Shown here one piece after another: positions 636 to 64,000 of a DNA stretch of 64,000 nucleotides (the stretch's first letter is position 1; each line of letters opens with the position of its first letter). The notes beneath the pieces were generated by a model, which did no database searches, was not told the origin of the DNA, and worked only from the letters and a program-made list of their open reading frames with translations. A program made the translations under genes and the position numbers. Location of the stretch: positions 992,001 through 1,056,000 of the forward strand of contig CP158635.1 of the NCBI GenBank assembly GCA_050273025.1. The letters run 5' to 3'. Source of the DNA: Cenococcum geophilum (Eukaryota).

Positions 636-2816
636 TCAGTTATAGCCGACCTCTCCTGGGAAAGAAGCCCAGAATCCTTGCGTGGCATTAACCGTTATGT
701 TGTCGAAGTCGGCGCTGGCGAAATCGAAATCCGAGTCGAATGAGTTATCGTTACTGACAGGGAACGTCTGCCCAGGGCTGACGAGTGATCCGGCAGACCC
801 GAAAGGCGTAGACGTTGGAGAAATCGGAGCGAGACCGGCTACTGTAGTCTGTGATGCGGTTAGTGTTTACCCGTGGCTTTGATAATAGAATTAAGCTTAC
901 GTCTTGAGTAGGCTCTGCTACTGGAGTTTGCTCGTCCTGGGGTTTCTGGACTGGAGATGGTTGCAGTGCGCCATAATCAACCAACGCACTACGAAGTGCC
1001 CGTCGCTCATCCGGTGAGACGGGTCCATCCTCGCCATGAATCGTCCTATAGAATGCTTGCATGCGTTTAATTGTTTCGAACTGCAAGAAAAGGCCATTAG
1101 GAAGTGACACTGCTAAAGAGGGAAGAGGAATTGTTTAATCGAATAAGAGTTGATCCTTACCCAGTGCTGCGCCATTGGCCACTGGCCTTTCATCTCCTTC
1201 AAAAATACACAGCCCTGGATCACAAGGTTGAGTGATTTTTGAGAGTCACTCGGGCCATCCTCCTCGCCGGGAAAATTGTAGCTGTAAAGCATTACACCAA
1301 CTGCTGTATAAATGGTAAATCCTATCCAGGGAACCAGTCCTCTGAGGAAGAAAACACCAAATGTACGCATCTCTTCGAGCATTTCACAGACCGTAGTGGC
1401 TTCTCGGACAAGCTCGGTCCTAGATAACTTCTGCCAATGCTTCCATGTATCAGGATGATCCTGATATGACCTAGGGACTTCAGACTGGTCGTTTTGAGGT
1501 CCAAGCACAGGCAGATAGGCACGATGAAGGAACATAGAAGACATGAAATGAATCGAGTGCATATAGCAAAAGGCCTGACCTTGATCAATAGCATTGTGGG
1601 CGCGCAGGGAGAATATGTCGTATTGTAACCTTTGAGGCAATGAATTCTTCCATGAATTGAGCGCATAGACTAATCGTTGAAATTCAGACGGCGCCCACGG
1701 GAACTCACTGTTGACTGTATTCGAGCACGCCCATCGAGCAACTAATCCCCAAATATTTGCAGCTCGGAGGCTGTAGGCTATAATTCCCAATTCCCCAACA
1801 GGAAGAGATGGGAGAGGCATCTGCAGGTCCCCATTTAAATTCTCACAGCGCACTGCTTCACCAAACACGAAATGGTCTTTTTCGCACGGGAGTTGAATCG
1901 AAATGTCAGAAGCATCAAGTGAGCGCTTCCGTCCTTTGCCGCCACTGAGCAGACTATCCATCAGGAAACAAGTCCAAGCGGTTCGTCGTCTCTCCTCCAT
2001 TTCAATGAACTCCTCTCGGGACAGGGGGCGATCCTTGGGATAGGAAGGTTCCTGGCAGAGGTCCATGATTTGAACCATTCGTATAGCCATGCCCAGGTAT
2101 ATCCAGGCTCTTCGACCATTTCCAGCACCCCAGTCGTGTCCTGTGAGCATTAGAAGTGCTTGAACGCGACTGATGCTAGGTGTCTCAAGATCGGACTGGA
2201 GGATTTGCCTGGCGTGCGCCGCGAAGGCATTGCTGGCTTCTGTTTGCGATTTGTATGGCTTTGGGGCTTCTTTGACAAATCTACTTCGAGTTATGACCGT
2301 CTCTATGTCTGGCGGATTTATACCTGATTAGCACCCGACCTACCTTATGGCCAGTGCCAGTATTGCCCAAACCACCCATCTCTCAAGTGTTCGGTCGTGA
2401 ATGCGTAGTAGAAGCGTCGGAATATGGTGAAAGCACCATTTGTATGAACACCTGAGGAAGCTATTCTTCACCTCGTCCGTCAGCAGGTCGAAAGGATCCA
2501 CGCTAGCCAATTGGACAGCCGGTAGACTCTCGAGTGCAGGTAGAGGTGGAACGGGAGGAGCAGAAGGATTGGTAGGAATAGAGGTGTCGGCACGCCGGGA
2601 AGGCGAAGGATTAGACGGTGATGTACTACTAGACACCTGTGGAGAGTCACAACGAGGCCTTTTAGGCTGTCGGTGGATAGAAGAGGTGCCAGGTGGAGGG
2701 AATTGACAAGAATCGGCGCGTGAGGTTACTTTGCAGCGTTCGCACGGTGGCTTGTCGTTGTGTATGCATTTTTGCTTCGCGCTACGACATGAGACGCATG
2801 CCACTGGATTCCTCAT
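636..2816 (-). CDS. Zn(II)2Cys6 fungal transcription factor with Fungal_trans (middle homology) domain; 4 exons 2816-2344, 2280-1161, 1080-901, 848-636; about 661 aa
   Basis: N-terminal CVSC..KQKC...PPCERC...C cluster; AWIYLGMAIRM and EERRRTAWTCFLMD motifs. Three GT-AG introns (donors GTAGGT, GTAAGG, GTAAGC) rejoin in frame and end in an acidic/aromatic tail (DSDFDFASADFDN...FWASFPGE). An extra 5' exon cannot be excluded. Confidence 0.9.
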
Positions 2817-3173
2817 TATGACCTGCAGTCGAGAAAAGATTATTTAGGGCGCACCTTAGTGGGCAAACGTTACGGCGGAGTTGATTGTGGCCGCCCTCTG
2901 CGCCTAAAATCTGTTTCGGAGGATAAGCCTCGAGTTTGCCGGATGCTAAAGCCACCTATTACCAAAGGAGGCCCCATACTGCTTAATCAGACCTACCCAG
3001 GAACAAATAACCCAACTCTTTGCTTGAGCCATCATCAAGCTATCAATTATGTATTAATCCCTCCTGTGAGGGTGCCCCGCCTTGGTAGACTACGGGCTTC
3101 TTATATTCTCCTGCAACTTTGGCAACATCTCTCGGGACGCCAATATCCACGCTTTTTCCCATCACAGACAAAA
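2817..3173. promoter_or_regulatory. Shared divergent promoter between the TF and AKR genes
   Basis: 357-bp head-to-head intergenic region with several CGG/CCG triplets, including inverted GGCGG(2874-2878)...CCGCC(2891-2895). Confidence 0.5.
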
Positions 3174-4125
3174 ATGACGTCTAATAACACTCACTCAACG
3201 CTTCTTCCAGCAGGCTCAGAACCCGCTTTCATCTATGGCACTGCATGGAAGAAAGATGAAACCTCACGGCTTGTCAAAGAAGCGCTAGCAGCAGGCTTTC
3301 GGGGCATTGATACCGCAGCGCAGCCTCGACATTACCGCGAGGAGTTAGTAGGAATCGCACTTCGAGAGGCTTTCAAAGAGGGCAAGGTTCAAAGGAGCGA
3401 CATATATGTGCGCAACTAGATGGCCCAGTATGCGAGCGTGGCTTATTTAGTGGCAGCTTCAAACAAAGTTCACATCGCCTCGCGGACAAGATCCGAATAA
3501 CATGCCATACAACCTTGGAGATGGATTGAAGACTCAAATTCACGCCTCGGTATCATCCTCACTGCATAATCTACGGCATTCAGAAGATCAAAACGCCGAT
3601 AACGAGTCTTACATTGATTGTCTCCTTTTGCATTCCCCGTATCCGACCAGTCATGCAACCTTGGAAGCCTGGAAAATCCTTGAATCATACGTGCCCCACA
3701 AAATCCTTAGGCTAGGAATCTCCAACGTCCCCCCGGGAATGCTAGAAGATCTTTTTGAAAACTCGTCCGTAAAGCCCTCAGTGGTTCAGAACAGATTCTA
3801 TCCTTCGACAGGTTACGATGTCGAACTCAGGGGATTTTGCATCGAGAGAGGCATCATGTACCAGTCTTTCTGGACGTTGACTGGAAATCCCCGCCTCTTG
3901 GCATCCGAGACAGTTGCTAAGCTCGCTGATTCAGTAAAAGTCTCTAATGCCTCCGCTTTGTATAGTCTTGTGATGAATTTGGGAGTTGTTGTTCTCAATG
4001 GAACAACCTCCACCCAACACATGCAAGATGACCTTACAGAGATCAAGGAAGTTCAGAAATGGGCAACCTCTTATCCCGACGACTGGAAGATGATTACGGA
4101 AGGCTTCGCAAGCCTCCTAGAGTGA
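3174..4125 (+). CDS. Aldo-keto reductase family protein; exons 3174-3407 and 3457-4125; about 300 aa
   Basis: FIYGTAW, GFRGIDTA..HYRE, LQTKFT, LLLHSP, LGISN and PSVVQNRF motifs carry the AKR catalytic Asp/Tyr/Lys/His. A 49-nt intron (GTGCGC...GCAG) joins the two track ORFs in frame. Confidence 0.92.
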
Positions 4126-4529: not shown

Positions 4530-6821
4530 CTACACTAAGGTGAGAGTTTTCATCCCACTCGAGTACGCTTTCCCCTTTGGTGAATTTGTCCTACCCCAGG
4601 ACCCTTTGATCTCTCCTACTCCGATTCGAGTAAACTCACCCATATCAAATCCAGCCTCTTCGAAGTCCACAAATGAGCTCGGAGTACCCCGCTGAACAAG
4701 GAAATCCACATCAACCAAACCATTATTTTGGCTGGCGCATTCTGCCAAAAGTGTTTTGTTGCAGTTCACCCAGTCGTCTCGTAATTTATGCTTCTCTTTA
4801 CCCTCCAACAACAGAACGTTTTGTCTTATTAACTCTTTCGAATTGGGGTCTTTTTGCTCGTTTGTTGAGATGCGCAGGCACCATACATTGCGCGTCAATA
4901 GCTTGGATGCTTTTCCAAGGCTGCCAGCTGGCTGAGTACGGGGAACGCGTGTACTCAAGGAACAGACCCCGGTGGGTTGCCAGTGTGAAGAGCCGTTCAG
5001 GATTCCATAACGATTACATCGCACGCCATGTGCTGCTCCGCGGTACCACGTAAGCGGGGTCAAAATTTGTGTCGGGCTCTCTTCTTGCCACATCAGAGTT
5101 GCCAACGTTAAAAGCCCACGCACTTTAATATCAGCATGCGTAATACGGGAGCTCAGCCACTGACTCGACCACGAAACGACCTGGCTGATTATTTCAAGCT
5201 TGTTTTCTGCCTGCTGAAGCTCGTCTTTGGGTGCTTGTACCGGGCCGTCTATTGATAGCCAGGACCAGGATGGGATGTCATGTAAATGCTCTGGTCGTGA
5301 CTTACCTTTGACATCTAGGGCTTCGGATACTGGTTGTCTGGTTGTCCAGAGAAGGCCGAAATGCAAATCCTGGACCCACAATCCTGCTAGAGGAGCACCA
5401 ATGGATCTTTCATGGAAAAAGGTTGTTATACCCGCCAGTGCAGCGAGTTTGTCAGTCTTTCGTGATAACTGGCGGGACGAGTAGTCTTCCACAAGTTTCC
5501 ACCAAATATTGCGAAGGCTAGTCTGAACGCTTGGGTCATGTGAGTTCCTCCTCCTATTCTGTGATTTGAACTTCCACAGTTCCTTCGCAGTACGGTATTG
5601 CAGGTCCAGAGTACCGTCTTCGGAAACGGTTCGTCGAGCACATTGCCAGAAGATTTGATCTTGTGCAAAGTAGATGGTTCTCCGGGATAAAAGCGCTTCC
5701 TGTAGCGCCCATCCACGCCGACCCAGGGAGGACTGGGCGATGGATCGATTCTCGGACGCTTGGATCCTAAGGTAAACTATAGGAGTATCTGTTCCTGGTT
5801 TGGCTGATCGTTGAGGAGATTTCGGACTTTCGAGCTCGAGCTTCACGGCTGGTTTGCGAGGGAATAAACATCCTCCGTGACCGTCCTGTGCAGCTGCAGC
5901 TGCGATGGTGAATTGAGCGCCTTGATAAATCGATGCCATCTTCACGGACTCAATCTCCCAATCGATAGTATCATCTTGAATGATGCACAGCGAATCTATC
6001 CACAGATATTGGAGCCCAAGTTGCCTGGTTATGAGGACCGCATCCTGGAATGTTCTCGGGAGGGATGATAGAGGGATTCCTTGAAGACGATTCTTGAGTG
6101 TAGCCTTTGTAGTTGTCAGCGGAGAGCTATCACCCCACCTATGGCTTAGAGTGGCGTAAAGCCCCGAGAGGTTATCAGATTTGCGTAAACGTGGACCTTT
6201 GGACTCGCTGCCAACGTCGATGACCCGTTTTGGCAATCTCGGCAAAGGCGTATCAAGAGACAGCGAGCATTCAGCATGTTGAGAGACACAGACGTCCAGC
6301 CAGTTTTTGATATTGGGAAAAGTATTGTCTATCGAACCATCGAGCCATAACTGTGTGCCGATTAGAGCACCTATTTCACTAGCGTCAGCTTGCATAGAGC
6401 CGCATAACACCAAAATTCCCAAATGGGCAAGCTCAACAATGAACTATCGCAGATCCGCACCTAGCAGTCCACATTGACGGCGACCGAGTTACATACTTTC
6501 ACTTGAGCACAGGACGATTTTCGCAGCTTGCTTGATTCTTTGCGCTTTCTTCGACGACGATAGGTCGCACTCGGCTTCAATATATGTGTATGCCTCTGGG
6601 TATCCTGGAGGCACCTTGGAGAAAGAGATGCGAGTCGGCGAAGCCCTGCCTTCACTAATATGCTTGAGGATCTCCTCCTTGTGGCCTGCATCCTCAAACG
6701 CGCGCAGAAACAAGACGCAGAGGTCGCATTTCTTGCTGCAGTTGATGAACTTTCGGAGGTCAACACAGTGCGTCTTGCGCTGTGCTGTAAACATACGTCG
6801 ACAGGTTTCGCAGACGGGCAT
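4530..6821 (-). CDS. HET-domain (PF06985-type, TOL/PIN-C-like) heterokaryon incompatibility protein; exons 6821-6497 and 6370-4530; about 721 aa
   Basis: YATLSHRWG, LPRTFQDAV, YLWIDSLCIIQDD..DW..ES..M..IY, RGWALQE, W..LVEDYS.R.LS...DKL.ALAGI and PSWSW motifs; N-terminal CxxC pairs; phase-1 intron GTATGT...GCTGAC...ATAG. Confidence 0.9.
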
Positions 6822-35600: not shown

Positions 35601-37443
35601 CCTAAATATAGTTACTATTAAGAATTAGTACTTACTACTACTAATCTATAAAATACTTAACGTACTTTATAGTGCTAAGTACTTTACTAAACTTAATATA
35701 ATTACTGCGTTTAACTAGATTCGGATTATAAAGGGCTATAAGTAGCTTATAGTATTTATTACCCGGTTCGGACTCTATAAAATACTAGTTATACTATTTA
35801 GCCTCTATAATATACCCGCTATATTTTAAAACTATATTAACTATATTTTATATAACGCCCTTAATAACTACTATACTGCCTACCTTAATAACGTCTTTAT
35901 CTTTTCTAAAATACGCGCTAAGTATACTAAGTATATAAATAAAGTTATCTAAAGACTTAGTAATACTGGACTTTAGATTAATATTAATAAGTTTAAGTTT
36001 TACGCTACTAAAACAAAATACCTTAGCTTAATTATCTTAACTAATAGTATAACTATAGACCCTAAAGAGGTATAGGCCTTATAGGAATAAAAGGACCCAA
36101 TATTAATTAAAAAACTAAAAAAATTTCTTAGCTTCGCGAACTTCTACTAATAATTTATCTAAGGCTACTTTGCCATCGCTATACCTATAATAAAACTCCT
36201 AAAGAAGGATATTAGATGGCTATAGGGACTAGAATAAGTTAAATCGTTTAAGGCCCTTAAGGGAGCCTTTACTTTAGCACTAGTACTAGCATACTATAAC
36301 TATATAAAGAAAACAGTGGTAGAGATAAATGTATTAAATTAGGCTTTTAGTGGAGTTCTTTCCTAGTATAATAATAATAGTAAATTAAAACTGGTTGTAT
36401 TCTTCTCCGTAAAGCACTTTATATTAAAGTATAACTATAAAATCTATAATAAAGAACTCTTAGTTATTATTAAGGCTTTAAAGAAATAGCGTTCTAAGCT
36501 ATAAGGGACTAAGAAGCTTTTTAAAATTATTACCGACTATAAAAACCTATAGACGTTTATAACTATTAAGTAGCTAAATTAGCGCTAAGTCTAGTAAGCA
36601 GAGTTTTTTTTTATAGTTTAACTTTATAATTATATACAGACCTAGTAGTAAAGCTACGCTCCCTACTGCCCTAAGCTAGCTACTAGGAATAAGGCCTAAG
36701 GACACTAATAATAAACGCCTTTATTACTAAGCCTAAGTTATTATACTACCCTAAAAAGTTAACCCTATAATCTTAAAAGAATTACTATATAAGTCCCGTA
36801 ACTTTAATAATATAGAGTTTATAGCCGCTCTAAACCCTAAAATAGCCGAAAAGTTACTAGATAAGTTAATTTAGCTAAGATACTAGGAGAATAAACTTAT
36901 AAGAGATATAGTGGCGGCCCTATATAATTAGAAAGCTCGCTATTAGCTAAAGAAGATTAGGAAATTACTTTATTATAATAAGTTAGAATATAGTATTATT
37001 AATAAATAGATCTACTTCCGCTAATATCTTTTTATCCCTAACGCCCTAAACCTCTACCTAGAAGTTACCTATCGCTCTTATAGTAGCGGCCCCGCTAATT
37101 ACCCTAGCTAGGTTAAAACTCTTAACCTCTTAAACTAAATATACTAGTAGCTAGGAATTTCCTAGTTTACGGCTACCTTTATTAAAGACTATACCCTATA
37201 CTTTTGTACTAAGACCCCCTATTCTACCCCGCCTAGTTTTTTAAAGCTATTAAAATTACCCACCTGCCTATAAACTAATATCTTAATTAACTATATTATA
37301 ATACTGCTGGTATACTAACGCTATAGTAAGGTATATAAATATATCCTTATTATTATAGACCGCCTAACTAAAATATAATACCTTATTCTAGTAATAGGAC
37401 TCTTAATAAAGGAGCTAGTTAATAGCTTTATTAATAACATATA

Positions 37444-53350: not shown

Positions 53351-55498
53351 TATTACGGCATTAGCAGAACTTTGCGGTCACGTAACTAGAGATATCTGCA
53401 TAAAAAAACCCTTTTTTAACTGGCGCTGCTCTCCTTCTCCTTTCCTTTCTCTAGCTTTAGATTCTTGTTTATAGACAATTTAATTATATAGGCTTGCGCG
53501 TCCCTTTTGCTATACCCATGCCTTAATTAACTAAGTCGCTAATATTATCTAAAGCTCTCTCTACTTTTTCTTCCTAAGAAGGAACTTAAATATATCTATA
53601 AAACTATAAATAGGACAAGAACATAAAATAGGACCCTAAGGATATTACTAGGACCATAAGGATAGGACATAAAAGAAAAGAATAAAACCCTAAGGAAAGG
53701 ACCTATAAGACACGCACAGACTAGAACCCCTAAAGAAATTACCTAGAATTACCTAATACCCCTACTACTATGCCACGAAATATAGTAGCAGGTAAAGCAG
53801 CTATAGGACCCTTAAATACTTCAGATAAAGAAACAATTAACGTTTTAACCCCCTAGGTGGAGCTTGCGGCTACTAATACTAAAATTAAATAACTGTAAGA
53901 GCTACTTAAAGCTAGAGATACCCCTATATCTAATAATAAGTTATTATTAAATAACTAAAGACTTGCTATAGTCCTTTAGGCCCTATTTTAGCGCCTTAGT
54001 GGATTTACTAAGGCCTATATAGTACCAAAGCAGTCGGTAAAGATTATAGATCCCCTACTACTTACAGACGGAACTGACCCTATATTTAATAATTAGAAGC
54101 TTTAATTACGGGATAAGCTTAAAGTTAATATAGACTACTTCCCTAACGCCTAAGCTAGAATAGCCTATATCTTTAGCTATATTAGTGGAGATGCTTAGAC
54201 GCATTTACGCCTGCAATATACTAAAGACTCAGCAGACCCCTTTATCTCTAAAGAAGAAATAATTAAATACTTATCTTCTATTTATAAAGACCCTTTTAAA
54301 GTATAAAACACCCGCCTTAGCTATAAAAGCCTAAACATAAAAATAACGGAGACCTTTTTAGCCTTCTAAACCCGCTTTTTATACCTAGCCAGATAGGCCT
54401 AAATCCCCTAAAAAGACCTACTACTAGACCTCTTTAATAAGCTTACCCTAGACCTATAGCGGGCCGTATTACCAGCTTATATTACGGCTTAGACATTAAA
54501 GGAACTTATAGACTATTACCTAGCTATTAACTAAGGCCTTTATTAAATTAAGGCACGCGCTAATTAGCTAAAAACTAGAAACCTTGCAAACTAGGCCGTA
54601 AGTACTATAAGTACGGCCCATAGTGCCCTAGTATAATTAGCAACTCCTATAATTAACCTAGTAGCTAGCTGTGCAGCTACCCCTACTACGGGCCTAGTAT
54701 ATACCCAGCCTATATATAGCGACCCCTATATATAGGCCTTTAGCAATTAAGGAGCTTACTTTTTATACGGTTAAATAGGCTACCCTATAAGGAACTACCT
54801 AATAAAGGTAAAGATAAATAAGGTCCTATTAATTTAGGAGGATATTACAGAGCTAGAAAAAGAGGAACCCTAAAGAAAGACTCTTCTCTAGGGTTAAAAG
54901 GGATTAATATATTATATATTAATTTAGATCAGCTAGTTAGTAAAAAAAGCTGCACTATCTCTTATACTTTATTCCGCAATAGATATTAAGTTTTAACTTT
55001 TGCTTTAGCTAACTTAGGAGTAAATGCCTTTACCTTAATTAACATAAAGTACGCTGTAAAACTAGCTAACTTTTTAAATATACCCCTTAAAGAACTGCCT
55101 AAACTAATCCCTATTTGCGGTTATAACGGATAAATAGGGCCACCTATTATAACTATCTTACGGATTTACCTCCGCGTTAACGAATAAAGGTAGTTTAATA
55201 TCCCCTTCCTTATTATAGACCTTGGAAGCTATAATATAATCTTAAAAAGAAAATAGCTAGCCTATTTAGGCTTATAGCTTAACGTATAGAATAGGCAGCT
55301 TATTTAGCCTAAAACTATGCCCCTAACGCCTTCCTTTATAAAAGAGATTAGTATTATAATAGAAAACCTTATACGGCCGTAAATAAACACCGTTTACTAG
55401 GCTAATGCAACGCGTAAAAACTAGGATTTTAAGAAGGATATATAGCTTAATCCGCAACAGATTTATATACTACACTGCCCCTAAACTACTTATATTAT

Positions 55499-58400
55499 TG
55501 TAACGGAACCTTATAGCAAGAACTACGATGGGCTCGTTATTAGGCTAGGTGTGTAGGAAATGTAAGTACAAAAGTTAAGAACGTAATAACAACTAGTGGA
55601 GTGGTTGCCTAACAAATTAACTCCAATTATATTCTAAGAATTACTATAAAGAAGGAACTATCTAGGTAGGGACTAAGGGTCCTTAAATACATAACCGTAC
55701 TCCTATAAAATCCTTTTTATATATAATATACGTCTTATACGTAAGGTATATAAGTTCCTCTTATTCCTCTCATTTAATATATAGCATATTATATAACCTT
55801 AGTTACTATTCCTTGTTACATAGTTCTATCGGCTCTATCTTAAACCGTGCCTAAATTAACTAACTAGCTTCTTTTGTCTCTTCTCCAAGTAGTTATAATA
55901 TTGTACTTAAAGCGTCCGTAACACCATCTCCCTCCTCTTTATCTTTGTCCTTAAAGATTTAAAACATCTCTAAGTTATTTACTAGAGGTGTAATATCCGT
56001 CTAATTAATTTGGTTAATATTATTGCTTATTATACCTAAAGTAATTTCTTCTTTATACGCCCAACGTCGTGCCCGCACTATTGCTGCAATATTATCTTTT
56101 AGTAAGATTATGCCGTCTCTATATTCTCGTTGTTTAAAAAAGGGGTTAGTTTATATTGCGTTGGCGAACCTATCTTTATAATAACCGTCCTCTTACTCGG
56201 AGTATACTAAAGCAAATATTTATTCATCCTGTGACGTTCGCTCTACTTCTAATACTAAGTATACGCGACCTATTACTCTTAATAGTTATCTAGTTCCCTA
56301 ATTAATTTATCTTAAGGTCTCGTATTTAATCTGCTGCTACGCGGCTAGATAGTAAACTATTACAAGCTCTTACTAAGTTAAAACATTCCCGTAACGCGGA
56401 ACAGAAGGCTCTAAATACTTAAATTACGGCATCTACTCGTCTGCTTTGTCTTAAGAAGGGTTATAAAAAGGTTTATTTTAAGGAGTAGAAACTTATAAAA
56501 CAAGGTCTATAGGAACTAGGTAATAAAAAAACGGATTCTCCTCTAACAGAGAAAGAAATAGATCCGAGTAGTTTAGTAAATATTCTTCTTAAGTCCCCCT
56601 TAGGTGACTTATTCTTTAGCAATTCTTCTTTATTAATGCTGCCTAACCTAATCTCTTCTAATACTCCTATACCTTTCCCATAGCGTTCTTTAAATTCTCT
56701 AGTAGCTCCTAGGTAGTCTTAGTATAGCCTATCCACTTAACCTCGTACTATGTTTTATTATTAATATCCTTATAATTAACAATCTTTAAAACTTGCCATT
56801 CGTCTTCTTTTTATCCTCTATATATGTCTACTTTATAGACCGGTGGCTTAATATTCCTATATGCTAGCTCTAGCATTGCAATATACTATATAGGGTAGAT
56901 CTTTATTTTGGCTAGTAGGTTTAACTTAAATATAACCGGTAAAATCCTTTATATAATTTCAAAAGGTCCTAGTTTAACGTGGTCCAATTTCTTACTTAGT
57001 CGTTAACTCTTAAAATTTTTGTATAGTAGCCACACTTTATCTCCCTCCTTAAGATCTGGTCCCTTAGATCTCTTAGCATTATAATACCTTTTCATTTTCT
57101 ACTATACTACCTTAGCTGTCTCTATAAGGTCTGCATAAAGATTTATTAAATCCTTTATTCTTTCTTTAGCTATACTACTTATTTTCTTTACTTACTATAA
57201 TAATAACAATATTCTTAGCTTATATCCATAATTTGCCTTAAATAGTAATATGCCTATTCCTTCTTAAGGTGTTGTATTATACGCAAACTATATAACTAGT
57301 AATAGTAATACCTAATTATTCTATGCATAATTAATATAATGCCTTAGATATTATTCTAGTGTCTAGTTTAATCTTTCCGTTTAACCGTCTGTTTATAAAT
57401 AATATATAGTAGAAGTTACTGCTTAAACTCCTTACTCCGCTAAGAATACTTCCTAAAATACTGCTACGAATCTTAGATCTCTATCCAATATAATTTTGCT
57501 TAGTGCTCCATATCTTATAAACACTTTTTTAATATAGATTCTAGCGACATCTTCCGCTAAAATTTCTTCTGTATATGCTATAAAGTATCCCTACTTTATA
57601 AGCTTATCCACTATTACTAAGATCACATTATAATCTTATCCGGTAATAGGGTCCTTTAATTTTAGCAACTTAATAATAAAGTCCCATAATATAACCTCCT
57701 ATAGTCTCTTTAGTATTTTAATAGGTTGTAGCCCTCTATATGGCTTATACCTCATCAGTTTATTCCTTTAGTAGTTTAGATATTCCTTTATAACTTTTCT
57801 AGCTATTCTTTAAATTCTATTAATAATGTATTCCTCCTAAAGTCTTAACACTAAGCCTATAGCCCCATTGTGTCCTTAAGTTAGTCCCTTATAGAAGTCT
57901 TCTATAAACTACTCTGCTATACTTCTTAGGATATACTTTACTTCTCAATTTTTGTATATATCCGTCTATAGATCTTCTAGCTATACTTTTAGAATTCTTT
58001 GTGCCTAAAAGCTTTCTAGTATCTTATAGACTTTCTCTAGTTTATCATCTTCTTAAGTTACTACAATTTTTAGATAATTATACCTAATTAATCTATCTAT
58101 ATCTTTTCGCAATAAAGCCCCCAATAGCTTTTCCTTATTTTATAGTTCAGCTTTACGGCTCAGAGCATCTACCCGCGTATTATCTATACCTTTAGTATAC
58201 TAAATCTTAAAATAGTATTCTATAAGCATCTCTGCCTATCTAACCTATCTTTAGTTAAGTTCCTTCGTCGTTAGAAATCCTATTAGGTTCTTATAATCTG
58301 TCTTAATTATAAATAGTTTCTCTATGCCTTACAAGAATACCCTTTATTCCTTTAATACTGTAACTATACCTAACAACTCCTTATTATAGATGTTATAGTT

Positions 58401-61400
58401 CAGCTCTAGTAGTGTTATCATCCAACTATAGTATGCTACTAGGTGCCATCTATCTTAATACCTTTGCATAAAGCACGCCCCTAGTATATAGTCTAATGCA
58501 TCTATCTTTACAACCATCTTTAGTCCTAGTTAATAGATTTTAAGAACTAGCTCCTAGGTAAATAACTCTTTAACTTTCTTAAAAAGTTCTCTTTACTCCT
58601 CTTCCTATACCTATAGTTCTTCTTTCTTTATTAACCGCGTAAATGGCTTAATATCCTTTAACCACTGCGCTATAAACCTTCTGCAGTAATTATAAAACCC
58701 TAGAAATAATCTTAACTATATAACGTTCTCTAGTTCCTACCAATTTACTATAGCCTTAATCTTTTTTAGATCTATACCAAGTTAGCCTAGTTTAATAATA
58801 AATCTAACAAAATCGGTCTTCCTAGTGAAGAACTCACATTTCTTAATTACTACTAGCATCTGTTCTTCCTATAGTCTCTTTAAGACCCATTTAACGTATT
58901 CCCCGTATTCTTCCTTAGTCATTAAGTAGATAATAATATCGTTAAGATATACTATAACAAATTCATCTAAGTATTCTCCTAATATATTGTTAATACGTTT
59001 TTAGAATATTGCTGGTGCGTTTATAAGCCCAAATTATATAACTAATAGTTTATACAGTCCTTCTTTTAACCTAAAGGCTACCTTATATTTATTACCTTCC
59101 TTAATCCTAATCTAATAATACACCCATCTCAGATTTATCTTTATAAAGATTTGTGTATTACCTATCCTATCTTAAATTTCGCTAATTAAGGGTAAAAAAT
59201 ACCTATCCTTTTTGGTAATACTATTTAACTATCTATAGTTAATACACAGCCTTAATTTACCATTTTTCTTTAATACAAATAGTACTAGATAACCCGCTGA
59301 TAATTGCGATAGTCTAATATATCCCTTTTATAGATTTTCCTAGATAAACTCTTTTAACGCTCTACCTTTTTCTTTAGTAAGCTTATAGATTAGAAAGAAC
59401 TTTAGACTTATCCCTAGTTCCAATTCTATCTTATAATCCCATACTATATATTCTAACAGCCTTTTACTTTCTAGTAACTATAGTTTTTTGCCATACTTAT
59501 AGTATTTCTTTAGTACATAACTTAGTCCTTTTTCTATTTCTTTATAGGTTGCTTCTACTTAGTACCATACCAACTTAGCTTATTATCGCATCTTATAGCG
59601 TTAAGTATTTCTAATATTAACCTAACTTGTAATCTAATTAATCCTTAGATTATATTCCTATAACTAAGGCATGCCTAATACTGCCTTATCCCGTCCTAAT
59701 AGTAGGATATCAAAAGACATCTTAATTTATCTTCCTTTAATAGTTATCTAAATAGGTCCTATTTTAAGATTAATAATCCCTCCTCTATAGGTTATTAGAT
59801 CCCCTAAAATTATAACTAATAGGTAAGGTTACTCCTTTTGTCTATAAGGTAGTCCCATTCTCTTAACTACTGTTAGTAAGATATGGTTTCGCGTTGCTCC
59901 ACTATCTATTAACGCTTCAAACTGCTAATCTTGCCAATTAATTCGTAAATTTAGGTATCATCCTTAAATTCCTTTAAGGGTCTAAGGCTCTACTACTAGC
60001 TCCCTCTAGTCCCGTAGGCCTCTACTTTTCCTAACTATTAGCTGCTTAATCCTAGTATACTTGGCTTACTCTTTAGCTAATACCTAGTTCGCTTTTTATC
60101 TTTAATATACCATAGACATATATTTTCTAGGTATTCCCACCACTATCGTCCATTTAAGTATTCTTCCATAAGGAATCTTCCTAGTTAAAGTACTACGCTT
60201 CCTTCCTCTTAGACCTCTGCTAGATGCCATCCATATATATATTTAGCATTCCTATACTATTACTCGTCTGTTATCTAGTATATTCTTACAAAGTATTTCT
60301 AATTCTTTTCCTTTAGATTCTTATATATTTCGCATATATCGTCTATATACGCAATCTATAATAATGTGTAGTATACTAGGTGCTTTAGGTTAACTCTTAG
60401 CTCGTCTTTATCCCTAAGTTTAAACCTTTATTATACTGATCTAAACGTTATAACTTTATTTGTAGGTACTAAGATGCGTCTTTTACTTCTCTAGTCCTCT
60501 AAATATTCCTCTAGATCCTTTAACGTTATAATTAAGGCTCCTTTAATATATGTTATAGCCTTTTCTATAATTGGGTGGTCCTAGATAACTTTTTCATCTA
60601 ACCATATATAGAAATCTTCCCACTTATTATTATGCCTTTGCCTATACCACTTTTGGTACAGCTGCTAGAGTGTATATAGTCTGTCTATAAGGAAGTATCT
60701 TCTTATTACTATATTATAATAGCCCTTTATGTGTTGTTCTTTGAACCTAGTTAGAATCCCTAGATCCTCTTTACTTTCCAGTTTAATAAGCTACTTAGCT
60801 CTTAGTATGCCTGCTCTCAGCCTATTAATGATTTTTTATACTAGTGCTCTGTCCTTTATACGTCCCAATATGCTAGATCTCTTATCTAGTTTCTGTTCTT
60901 ACCATATAATAATTCTTTGCTTAAACTCTTTTATAGTTTCTTTTAGTTTACACCTTACGCTTTAATCCTTAAAGTTATCTTGCTTCTTAATCCTAGTATT
61001 AAACTTTCGATCTTTAGGCTAAACACTACGTTCCCCTAGTAAGTCTTCTAGGTCTATATATCTGTCTCCTAGTCTAACTGCTATTTATATTACAGATTCT
61101 CTAATCTATAAAGAAGCTTCTTGCCTCTTATCTATGGGTGCCCTTATTTATACTCCAAAATCTTAGTCCCTTAGATTCTTTAATCCTAAGCTTACTTCTA
61201 ACTTAAGTTTAGCTCCCGCCTTAGTCTAACTAAGCATCTATAGTGTTCTCATCTTATCTTAAGAGTCTTAAATCTTACTTATCTCGTCTTAAGAGTCTTA
61301 TATCTGTGGGAAACTTTATCCTAAGCTTATTTATATGTTTCTAAACTAAGCTACTGCCCTGCTCTATCGGTTTTCGTCTGTTATAGGTCCTAGGGTATAC

Positions 61401-63449
61401 CTTATCTCATCTTAAGAATCTTAGTCGTCTCTTATCTCATCTTAAGAATCTCAAGCCTTTAGCCTTTTACCTTTATTAAGTGCCGAAGTAGTTCACTATC
61501 CTACTTCTCTTACGTCTTATAAAGCGATAGACATTATGTCTAGTAGGGTTTCAATCCCTACTAATATTCCTTATTCTATAGTGGAATTATCCTCTGCCTC
61601 TAGTATAATATCTCTAAGGTCTACTTGCTCCCAGTAAGCGGCCCTTATTGCCTTATTATTACGGAATATTTCGCTTAGGTCAAATTTATCGTTCTTAATA
61701 TCCAATCTGCGAACTAGTTTATTAGTTCCTCTATATTCTATAGGTGCTAGCTCTTGTAGCTAATAGCTTACGCCATACTTAGCGTCCTTATAAATTTGGC
61801 ATACGTTATTATAACAAAACATAAAACTTCTAATTAAACATTCTTTTGTTCCTCGTAGCATATTATCGTCCCTCTATACATATATATTATCTGCTAGTCT
61901 TATACCCTTTACTATATAGTAACTCTACCCACTTCTACAGTCTTTAACGTAATAACCCTATTTTCCGCAATTTATATAAGCTCCTTCTTTAAACCATTTC
62001 TCTTGCTATAGAGTCCGCCTAAATGTCTTCTGCTATTAAGATCCCTAATTTAGCCTTTACTCCTTAGACCTTTAATTACTTAATCCTTATCCTCTAGGTT
62101 TTTATAGTTTACTCTATCTTTTATAGGCTTCTTTAGTACCACTTAGGTCTATTAGCTCTGCGCCATACTATAGTTTCTAACTTAGCTTTTATTATTATAT
62201 ATTCTGCGCCTTATATAACTATAGAACTCTATCCTAGCCTCTCTTAGCCTATTCCCTTTAGTAGATCTAATTATTAATCTTAATTACCTAATCTATTAGT
62301 TCCCTTAGGGTGTCCGCATCTTCCATTAGAATAATTACGTCCTAGACTTTAGCCTTAAGTCCCTATTTATACTGTGCCATAAGCGCCCTATTATTCCACT
62401 CTACTTATATTGCTAGCGTCTGGAACTATATTATATACTTAATTACTAAAGTTCGTTATACGAGGTTCTAGAGTTTTCTTTCCGCTATAGTTATTTCTTC
62501 TAGGTCTCTAAATATCTACGTAAGTCGTTCTACAAATCCTTCCCAACTTAAGAATATAAATCGCATATCTTAATTAGTAGTCGTTATTCCGTTTACCTAT
62601 ATCTCCATAAGGTAAGATTTAAACCACTTAAGTGCTTTTCCTAATAAGAATAGTCCTGTATAGGCTATCCAATCCACAGGTATAGGTAACTTTACTCCCT
62701 CCTATAAGACCTTAAAGTACATTTATATAAGAAATCCTTTAAGCTTTAACCTCTCTCCTATAAATCTCTTAATTAATAGTAGCTTAATCTTTACTGCTCC
62801 TATCCTATTAAGTCTTTCTTCCAACACTATATTATTAGCTATTAGCTAGTTAACTATTTCCTATAGCTATCCGATCGTCATAGGTTGCTATAAGTTAGTA
62901 TCTGCTATACTAGTATCACCTCCTGTCCTTAAAGTAGTTGCTGCTGTTAATAGCGTTATAGTAGCTGCTTTTAGTGGCATGTTATTTAACTTCTTATATT
63001 AATACTATAACTAGGTAGTAATTATATAACGGAACCTTATAGCAAGAACTATAATAGGCTCGTTATTAGGCTAGGTATATAGGAAATGCAAGTATAAAAG
63101 TTAAGAACGTAATAATAACTAGTAGAGTGGTTGCCTAATAGATTAACTCCAATTATATTCTAAGAATCACTATAAAGAAGGAACTATCTAGGTAGAGACT
63201 AAGGGTCCTTAAATACATAACCGTACTCCTATGAAATCCTTCTTATACGTGATGTACGTCTTATATATAAGGTATATAAGTTCCTCTCGTTCCTCTCGTT
63301 TAATACGTAGCACATTATATGACCTTAGTTACCATTCCTCGTCACATGGTTCTATCGGCTCTATCCTAGACCGTGCCTAAATTAACCAACTAGCTTCTTC
63401 CGTCTCTTCTCCAAGTAGTCGTAACATCGTACTTAAAGCGTCCGTAATA
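55499..63449 (-). mobile_element. Element H: full-length (7,951 bp) Ty3/Gypsy chromovirus with long gag extension and a 3' antisense ORF
   Basis: 425-bp LTRs 55499-55923 and 63025-63449; TSD ATTAT; PPT aaagaggagggagatgg; gag ATG 62980; CCHC ~61940-61980; protease I(D)SGATRNH ~59885-59910; RT YL(D)D ~58940; chromodomain ~56690-56800; pol stop ~56616. Confidence 0.95.
56032..56683 (+). pseudogene. Antisense accessory gene of element H: Zn2Cys6-type cluster plus coiled coil (RIP-mutated; 3' end approximate)
   Basis: Frame from 56032 reads M-P-S-x-(Y>C)-S-R-C-LKKGLV-(Y>C)-13 aa-(Y>C)-S-E-(Y>C)-TKANIxSS-C-DV. Four Cys codons appear as TAT/TAC, the expected RIP products of TGT/TGC. A helical, charged segment follows after a probable intron. 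Confidence 0.65.
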
Positions 63450-64000
63450 ATTATACCACCCGCACTAGAGACTTAAAAAGTCGGTAATAGCCTAGATAAG
63501 TCCCTAATAGAGAACTTAGGCCCCATACAGCCATAAAGAAAGGCTAGGAATATTAGATAATATACTAAACTAATAGACTAAAAGGACAATTTATAGAAAA
63601 TAGAACGTGAGCTAAGGAAGACTATAAACCCTATACCGTAAAATACGGCCTAATAAATATCCGTAAAGAAACCCAAAAACCTCCCACTAGTTAATATCTA
63701 CTATATTAGCGCTATAGGATTCTACTAGAACCTAGTTTAGCCTAATACCGTTATCTTTATAACTTGCTTATACAAAATTAATTAAATAATTAAAGAGAAA
63801 GAAGCCCTAGCCTAAGAGAAAGGTAAGCTTATAAATAAGGAGCTAGTAAAACAGAAACTGCCCCGTTAATACTAGGAATTTAAAAATACCTTTTTTAAAG
63901 TAGTATCTAATATACTTTCGCCTCACCAACCGTATAATTATAAAATTAAAATTAAGCCGGATAAGGTGGTTACCCTTAGCTATAGCCCCCTCCGATAGCA

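Follow-up and report, generated by a model that had tools for sequence, protein, structure and literature searches.

A decayed Ty3/Gypsy chromovirus of Cenococcum geophilum carries the remains of a probable third gene, spliced and antisense to gag-pol

The window analysed here is a stretch of 64,000 nucleotides of the Cenococcum geophilum genome (contig CP158635.1, positions 992,001 to 1,056,000 of the forward strand), within which element H, a Ty3/Gypsy chromovirus, occupies positions 55499-63449 on the minus strand. Opposite its gag-pol genes, positions 56032-56683 (+) are a copy of a small gene inactivated by repeat-induced point mutation (RIP); its start codon is lost, it has five in-frame stops, four of the six cysteines of a conserved motif have been changed to tyrosine and both splice sites are damaged. 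The best explanation is that this is the RIP-killed copy of a chromoviral third gene, spliced, antisense and situated between the end of the chromodomain and the polypurine tract (PPT), and that this antisense gene is a conserved possession of a lineage of Ty3/Gypsy chromoviruses. The explanation as a whole is given a probability of roughly 0.7.

Read on the plus strand in the frame of 56032, the window copy translates as IPKVISSLYAQRRARTIAAILSFSKIMPSLYSRCLKKGLVYIALANLSL, two stops and PSSYSEYTKANIYSSCDV; after the leader, the frame continues as MPSLYSRCLKKGLVYIALANLSL, the two stops and PSSYSEYTKANIYSSCDV. Exon 1 (56032-56260, +), comprising the leader, the six-cysteine motif and both of these stops, maps to positions 258-498 of L003, a metagenome locus with an intact copy, and has homologues identified with HMMER. 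It begins with ATA, a RIPed start codon aligned to the ATG of intact copies, at a distance of 108 nt from the inner edge of the 3′ long terminal repeat (LTR) at 55924. The motif has the form CX2CX6CX13CX2CX8C (56122-56232, +) and reads Y, C, Y, Y, Y, C in the window, with the codons TAT (56122), TGT (56131), TAT (56152), TAC (56194), TAT (56203) and TGT (56230), and all six positions align to TGT or TGC in L003. A first-pass annotation of the window had proposed an antisense frame starting about 110 bp from the 3′ LTR, with this same cysteine spacing once TpA is reverted to TpG and with two of the six cysteine codons still intact, and on each of these points it was correct.

Exon 2 (56316-56683, +) encodes a long helix and an acidic tail and contains three further in-frame stops. 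Homology runs down to its terminal stop, TAG at 56681-56683, where the last residues are ...LPNLISSNTPIPFP, and this tail overlaps the end of the chromodomain-coding sequence tail-to-tail, the same order of helix, acidic tail and overlap with the pol 3′ end that had been predicted. Between the two exons lies a 55-nt intron (56261-56315, +), aligned to L003 499-553 (GTGCGC...TAG), the donor of which has changed from GT to AT and the acceptor from TAG to TAA. The intron had earlier been placed at ~56261-56348 with a RIP-damaged donor; both the start and the damage to the donor are retained here, and the end is moved ~33 nt upstream to 56315. An estimate of 56259-56316, made from the window alone, was likewise replaced once the intact copies had been aligned. 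Across the gene the window differs from L003 by 179 mismatches, 128 of which are C>T or G>A towards the window.

Taken by itself, the motif pattern is within chance expectation. Tyrosine accounts for 6.8% of all codons in the RIPed 57 kb of the window, and the six frames of this part contain three matches to a loose [CY] pattern with general Zn2Cys6 spacing and one to the [CY] pattern with the exact spacing. The two stop-free pieces of the RIPed gene gave no Pfam family, and a word-based protein search with the RIPed query gave one candidate, which received no score. A HMMER (phmmer) search of 1.84 billion representative proteins, using as its query the translation of 56107-56298 read through its stops as X, identified 46 homologues with E-values of 1e-3 or lower, seven of them at 1e-10 or lower. 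The majority are short open reading frames (ORFs) with tyrosine where others have cysteine, and cysteine or tyrosine occupies at least five of the six motif positions in 42 of the 46. The window motif is accepted as real because these homologues exist. That the pattern is instead a chance product of tyrosine-rich RIPed DNA could be argued from its frequency in the six frames and from the tyrosine content; it is nevertheless refuted, with a probability of practically nil, by the homologues, by intact relatives that possess all six cysteines and by the recurrence of the motif at the same position in 83 of 85 elements.

The intact relatives reached from the least damaged match are P0049 (239 aa) and P0051 (152 aa), which share 60% identity and have all six cysteines in a continuous ORF. 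Residues 8-23 of P0049 match the LTR end and the PPT (window 55914-55961), residues 32-105 match window 56050-56274 and residues 102-239 match window 56318-56680 one frame over (tblastn); the whole interval 56032-56683 is therefore homologous. The open frame of P0049 extends back across the spacer into the LTR end, and in the database ORFs P0053, P0054, P0056 and P0038 LTR sequence reads directly into the gene. The annotation of the clusters of ten relatives holds nothing beyond "hypothetical protein".

A scan of metagenome contigs found a relative encoded in 243 of 530 candidate pattern matches, and 79 loci were kept, from which 84 copies were aligned together with that of the window. In 83 of these 85 copies an integrase/chromodomain match on the opposite strand (tblastn) adjoins the 3′ end of the gene, the gap being -12 to 56 nt (-12 in one copy, mostly 5-8 nt), and in the remaining two the flank is present without such a match inside 600 nt. 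An element-borne gene between chromodomain and PPT, as the first-pass annotation had envisaged from element H, is thus borne out by the other copies. Capture of a host gene was also considered and was dropped, the relatives found sitting at the same place in a Gypsy element. Most of the kept loci have a GC content of 0.31-0.42; L002, L003 and L019 are at 0.47-0.48 with long open frames, and encode on the opposite strand gag and a series of protease, reverse transcriptase, ribonuclease H, integrase, SH3 and Chromo domains (PR-RT-RNase H-INT-SH3-Chromo). The six motif positions are exclusively TGY or TAY in all 85 copies, cysteine being the majority at five of the six, and all six cysteines are present in the five intact DNA copies as well as in P0049 and P0051. 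In L001:1172-1618, a copy free of other damage, one nucleotide is missing from exon 2, and as a result the antisense gene and the tail of the pol frame are both shifted.

In nearly all genomic copies a +1 change of frame is needed after ...SVSDAE. At this point lies an intron with GTGCGC, GTACGC, GTACGT or GTGCGT as its donor and TAG followed by GG at its acceptor (L003, L002, L001, L019), and with a branch site resembling CTGAC or CTGAT in L019 and L001. Its removal joins T to GG to form a tryptophan codon (...SDAEWSRV...), exactly as in P0049 and P0051, two ORFs that lack the intron. Intron length is 55 nt in 81 of the 85 copies, 61 nt in two, 127 nt in one and 32 nt in one (a remnant), and this constancy fits the suggestion, already made in the first-pass annotation, that an intron can survive retrotransposition when it is antisense. 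It is worth mentioning that lengths of 55, 61 and 127 nt all leave a remainder of 1 when divided by 3 (1 mod 3), a property irrelevant to a spliced intron and relevant to the frame on the opposite strand. A sub-group of database ORFs (P0020, P0005 and P0022) reads ...SDAEC-TFHVRS-AAARLDSEL and lacks the 55-nt piece, with a junction unlike the spliced one, and may derive from a copy with an internal deletion in the intron.

With an intron length of 3n+1, the two plus-strand exons differ in their phase relative to the one minus frame. In exon 2 the plus and minus frames have separate third positions; in exon 1 a phase test is undiscriminating because the wobble positions of the two frames coincide. 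Differences between intact copies were counted by coordinate phase (0/1/2) and assessed by chi-square. The pol control gave 10/10/38 for L003 against L002 (p 1e-6), with its peak at the third position of the minus frame. Exon 2 gave 40/14/15 for the same pair (p 8e-5) and 57/18/31 for L003 against L019 (p 1e-5), both peaking at the third position of the plus frame. For L003 against L002, the intron was flat (4/5/2, p 0.53), exon 1 peaked at the position common to both frames (3/0/15, p 2.8e-5) and the last ~110 nt had no peak (6/5/7). Ratios of nonsynonymous to synonymous substitution (dN/dS), calculated pairwise for six pairs of intact copies, were 0.06-0.25 for the leader and exon 1, 0.12-0.34 for exon 2 (556-790) and 0.27-0.83 for the tail in the plus frame, as against 0.88-2.8 for the same stretch of exon 2 in the minus frame; the pol control in the minus frame gave 0.06-0.14. 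Transversion diversity in exon 2 across all 85 copies, in which RIP transitions are ignored, was 0.159/0.084/0.083 and peaks in the same phase. From the phase test, dN/dS and transversion diversity together it follows that selection acts on the spliced plus-strand gene. These sequence comparisons show purifying selection on the antisense gene as read in its spliced plus frame, and the dN/dS check recommended by the first-pass annotation came out in its favour (0.06-0.34).

It could be objected that the plus-strand ORF is a mere shadow of the pol tail on the minus strand and makes no protein, seeing that no stop interrupts the minus frame of intact copies in this region and that in exon 1, where wobble positions coincide, the phase test does not discriminate. 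However, in exon 2 the substitutions track the plus frame (40/14/15) and dN/dS is low in that frame alone, the phase shifts by +1 exactly over a GT..AG intron, two database ORFs match the spliced junction precisely, and the plus frame of exon 2 is open in just 3.6% of resamplings given the minus-frame protein, so that a shadow ORF is very improbable.

Upstream of the start codon, the spacer at L003:191-257 (window 55965-56031) differs between L003 and L002 at five of 67 sites and is more conserved than synonymous sites. It could represent a 5′ untranslated region (UTR) or promoter, a signal for reverse transcription, or the end of the pol-frame tail (...TPLINDLEM..IFEDEDEEEGDG).

The openness of the pol frame over the entire antisense gene is the most unusual feature seen in this analysis. 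In L003:32-906 (-) and L002:3787-4715 (-), which are homologous to window 55943-56654 (-), there is no pol-frame stop for ~280-300 codons past the chromodomain, and the frame crosses both exons, the intron and the PPT before running a further 120-140 nt into the LTR. The corresponding pol-frame continuation in the window (55943-56654, -) contains at least 17 TAA or TAG codons. Five window stops in the pol frame, read codon by codon, are all TAA or TAG, and three of these, the apparent pol stops at 56643, 56616 (56616-56618) and 56589, align to glutamine codons of the intact relatives. The first-pass annotation had taken ~56616 as the end of pol, followed by a gap of about 700 bp; because this stop aligns to glutamine, there is no genuine pol stop there and no 700-bp non-coding gap, both being products of RIP.

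When the antisense gene is resampled synonymously, the minus frame stays open over exon 2 in 2-4% of 5000 trials. An open pol frame without conservation of its residues may reflect real dual coding, or merely a need to end translation near the 3′ end of the RNA. True dual coding, in which a pol tail of ~280 residues and the antisense gene would both be translated from ~650 nt, would add to the explanation preferred here without replacing it, and is regarded as possible though on the unlikely side. It draws on the resampling result, on the absence of pol-frame stops in L003 and L002 between the chromodomain and a point 120-140 nt into the LTR, on a similar frame in L001 apart from its 1-nt indel, and on the intron lengths, the 1 mod 3 property of which matters for the minus frame alone. 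On the other hand, the residues are not conserved (minus-frame dN/dS of 0.88-2.8 over exon 2), the frame also crosses the PPT into the U3 region of the LTR, where coding is unexpected, only three or four related intact copies bear on the matter, and openness could simply serve to place a stop near the RNA 3′ end, an idea of our own.

The spliced product of L003 is 197 aa in length and is made up of a conserved leader (MP..S..RRAR.VA.ILSLGE), the six cysteines, a helix of ~100 residues and an acidic, variable tail ending ...SMLPD..S.DTPVPFP. The spacing CX2CX6CX13CX2CX8C is found in all intact copies. Canonical fungal Zn2Cys6 domains have the spacing CX2CX6CX5-12CX2CX6-8C, and four of the cysteine intervals fit it, the 13-residue middle loop being one residue beyond the canonical range; a single canonical Zn2Cys6 motif occurs among all the loci and the window. 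The structure prediction that had been called for was successful in one part, AlphaFold giving the helix a predicted local distance difference test (pLDDT) score of 94-99 over P0049 residues 101-190 (helix called at 98-199), and not in the other, as the fold of the cysteine domain was predicted poorly.

A number of observations weigh against the antisense gene and its product being what has been described. For the cysteine domain the pLDDT is 44-72 within the full model, and modelling of the domain alone gives a mean of 53.7. Zn_clus (PF00172), against which the first-pass annotation had asked for the protein to be tested, scores 8.1-17.3 bits, below the gathering cut-off of 21, in all seven intact products (P0049, P0051 and exon 1 of L003, L002, L004, L019 and L001). 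True members of Zn_clus can also fall below this threshold, since a host Zn2Cys6 ORF in the window scores 19.0 bits; hhalign of the family against that same ORF gave a probability of 0.5%. DUF3716 (PF12511) scores 12.4-20.1 bits, against a cut-off of 22, in five of the seven products, namely all five DNA copies, and had no Pfam listing for P0049 or P0051. The heptad pattern of the helix is weak, its best register having a hydrophobic fraction of 0.54-0.63 at positions a and d as against a background of 0.36-0.38. The C-terminal ...DTPVPFP overlaps the pol codons ...AMGKVQEY at the chromodomain end, and its conservation may therefore be that of pol. The minus frame is open throughout, and some constraint on the other strand exists. 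A look-up of RNA runs for L003:150-1000 listed none. Finally, P0049 and P0051 may come either from complementary DNA or from DNA copies without the intron, and no locus identical to either was present among the 79 kept metagenome loci.

Searches for a known fold added little. A profile search of the PDB with the family alignment returned coiled-coil noise only (E-values of 1 or higher), Foldseek against the PDB with the full model returned no matches, and a wide structural comparison (VIA) returned only chains with long helices, at Z-scores of up to 7.9, which is in the commonplace range. In the ESM Atlas the nearest cluster scores 0.90 (204 aa, 77 members, Ascomycota) and bears the automatic name "Zn(2)-C6 fungal-type domain-containing protein", and a DUF3716 cluster appears in the same list at 0.77, both being leads only.

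These results bear on a second interpretation, according to which the gene is real and its protein is not of the Gal4 type, being instead a member or relative of DUF3716 that serves, for instance, as an adaptor between proteins, in RNA binding or in particle assembly. The DUF3716 profile aligns over its whole length (3-59 of 59) to exon 1 of L003 with 20.1 bits (E = 6e-4) and is listed for all five intact DNA copies at 12-20 bits, whereas Zn_clus mostly covers one half of its own profile, and the Atlas cluster at 0.77 is a lead in the same direction. Every DUF3716 score nonetheless falls short of the 22-bit cut-off, the best Atlas cluster (0.90, 77 members) bears the Zn(2)-C6 name, and DUF3716 is a domain without an assigned function, so that this interpretation supplies a family name and no mechanism. 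DUF3716 proteins are, in the accessible text of one report, also transposon-borne, sitting in the Zymoseptoria element REP9, which differs from element H in being a class II transposon (PMC8232023). A DUF3716 identity is a possible answer and not the probable one.

Returning to a spliced antisense third gene as the preferred explanation, its product resembles a small zinc-binding, pairing protein, which suggests that the elements bring along a regulator of their own or a factor for interaction with the host. Both the Zn2Cys6 label and the role of regulator are put forward here as hypotheses. The antisense mRNA would start in or next to the 3′ LTR, read inward and be spliced, and the intron would be retained in the sense genomic RNA and so be inherited via retrotransposition. 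The six cysteines would bind zinc and the long helix would pair the chains. The protein would be a regulator supplied by the element, with nucleic acid or chromatin as its binding partner, and would most likely act on the LTR of the element itself or on host silencing. HBZ of human T-cell leukaemia virus type 1 (HTLV-1) is an antisense product driven from the 3′ LTR and spliced, and is a leucine-zipper protein that regulates the transcription of its own element. A more ambitious version of the proposal, considered unlikely, is that many chromoviruses of the Pezizomycotina carry an HBZ-like regulator encoded by an antisense gene that is spliced and transcribed from the 3′ LTR; its dimeric zinc-cluster protein would sit on the LTR or chromatin of the element and tune transcription or host silencing, and the gene would lie wholly inside a pol frame held open into the LTR by selection. 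Were this true, it would be a sense/antisense overlap of ~650 nt in a eukaryotic mobile element.

For the window itself the finding is an ordinary one, because this copy is dead. LTR retrotransposons are usually taken to need gag and pol alone, and here a third gene is maintained by selection, contains an intron and is widespread in ascomycete Gypsy elements. The open pol frame bears on the origin of overlapping genes and on how the RNAs of retroelements avoid long 3′ UTRs.

Element H has the features of a Ty3/Gypsy chromovirus, namely two TG..CA LTRs with a 5-bp target-site duplication and the gene order gag-PR-RT-RNase H-INT followed by a chromodomain. The target-site duplication ATTAT is identical at 55494-55498 (left) and 63450-63454 (right). 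The 3′ LTR (55499-55924, -) has the ends TGTTAC...GTAACA on the minus strand, and 380 of its 421 aligned bases are identical to 63027-63447 within the 5′ LTR (63024-63449, -); by an uncounted reading of the alignment by eye, the differences are C/T and G/A only. Adjoining the 3′ LTR is the PPT (55925-55942, -), which reads AAAGAGGAGGGAGATGG on the minus strand and is kept in L001, L002, L003 and L019. This is followed by the spacer or presumed 5′ UTR of the antisense gene (55943-56031, +), which is conserved among the intact relatives. Beyond the antisense gene are the remains of the chromodomain (56655-56801, -; EWQVLKIVNYK...YEVKWIGY..., window residues aligned by eye) and of gag-pol (56802-63023, -). 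When the minus strand of the element was read through with X at its stops, Pfam identified Ty3_capsid, gag-asp_proteas, RVT_1, RT_RNaseH and SH3_Tf2-1; for the RIPed copy of the window there was no Chromo listing, and this domain matched the corresponding stretch in L003, L002 and L019 with E-values of 3e-8 to 6e-8.

No second copy of 55901-56800 was found within the window (blastn). A weak blastn match to the reverse transcriptase region of element H, 69% over 177 nt on the opposite strand, is present at 36433-36603 and suggests another degraded Gypsy element there, without a copy of the antisense gene. From ~7 kb onward the window is AT-rich (GC 0.25-0.41), and this block is read as RIP-degraded DNA. 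At the GC-normal left end are host genes for a Zn2Cys6 factor, an aldo/keto reductase and a HET-domain protein, at 1113-2843 (-), 3451-4125 (+) and 4530-6443 (-), which directly adjoin the RIPed repeat block. The host Zn2Cys6 factor has a Fungal_trans domain (E-value 7e-21) and the Zn_clus-like N-terminus with 19.0 bits referred to above.

Among known proteins, the product of the antisense gene is similar to Zn(II)2Cys6 (Gal4-type) factors in its N-terminal six cysteines (CX2CX6C...CX2CX8C), its long helix and its acidic tail, together with a sub-threshold Zn_clus match in seven of seven products. Unlike these factors, it stays below the Zn_clus cut-off, has a 13-residue loop and no Fungal_trans domain, is ~197 aa in size, is transposon-borne and has a poor fold model. 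The likeness to HBZ is a functional analogy only, both being antisense retroelement genes that read inward from the 3′ LTR, are spliced and specify a small protein with a pairing helix. HBZ differs in belonging to a human retrovirus and in being a basic leucine zipper (bZIP) protein with no sequence relation, and regulation is established for HBZ and proposed for the antisense gene.

The closest counterpart in position is brtn of Boty, which was reportedly published by Zhao et al. in 2011 (Virology 417:248). The function of brtn-type genes has been obscure since that year, and L002 and L003 now provide intact copies with a clear protein architecture. In the literature searched, in which few subscription journals were covered, no zinc-cluster or coiled-coil protein from a fungal retrotransposon was found described, and the first-pass annotation had known of no such component in fungal chromoviruses. 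An antisense gene of this kind is, however, already in print: brtn is an additional antisense gene of Boty-like Gypsy elements in Botrytis and Sclerotinia, situated between pol and the 3′ LTR, according to the accessible text of three papers (PMC7264820, PMC8365987, PMC4227169). These descriptions, in the same portions of text, mention no zinc cluster, coiled coil or open pol frame across the gene, and the terms "brtn", "zinc" and "additional ORF" were absent from those supplementary files of PMC8365987 that were checked. In plants, antisense ORFs between pol and the 3′ LTR are reported for the Ty3/Gypsy elements Grande, RIRE2, Retand and PvRetro13 in the available part of PMC7264820; there they share position and orientation with the gene of element H, are conserved within families and have no assigned function, and they differ in belonging to plant elements. 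As far as the accessible text of PMC5987419 goes, a Monilinia transcript is reported to match BRTN as well as a truncated, chromodomain-bearing Pol, which fits the tail-to-tail layout of the gene in element H. Compared by description only, brtn and the antisense gene are each an extra gene opposite gag-pol, between pol and the 3′ LTR, in a fungal chromodomain Gypsy element; the gene described here has this position in 83 of 85 copies, with conservation that implies coding (dN/dS of 0.06-0.34). Extra genes of antisense orientation are already known from fungal Gypsy elements, and the one in element H is likened to brtn by position and description only.

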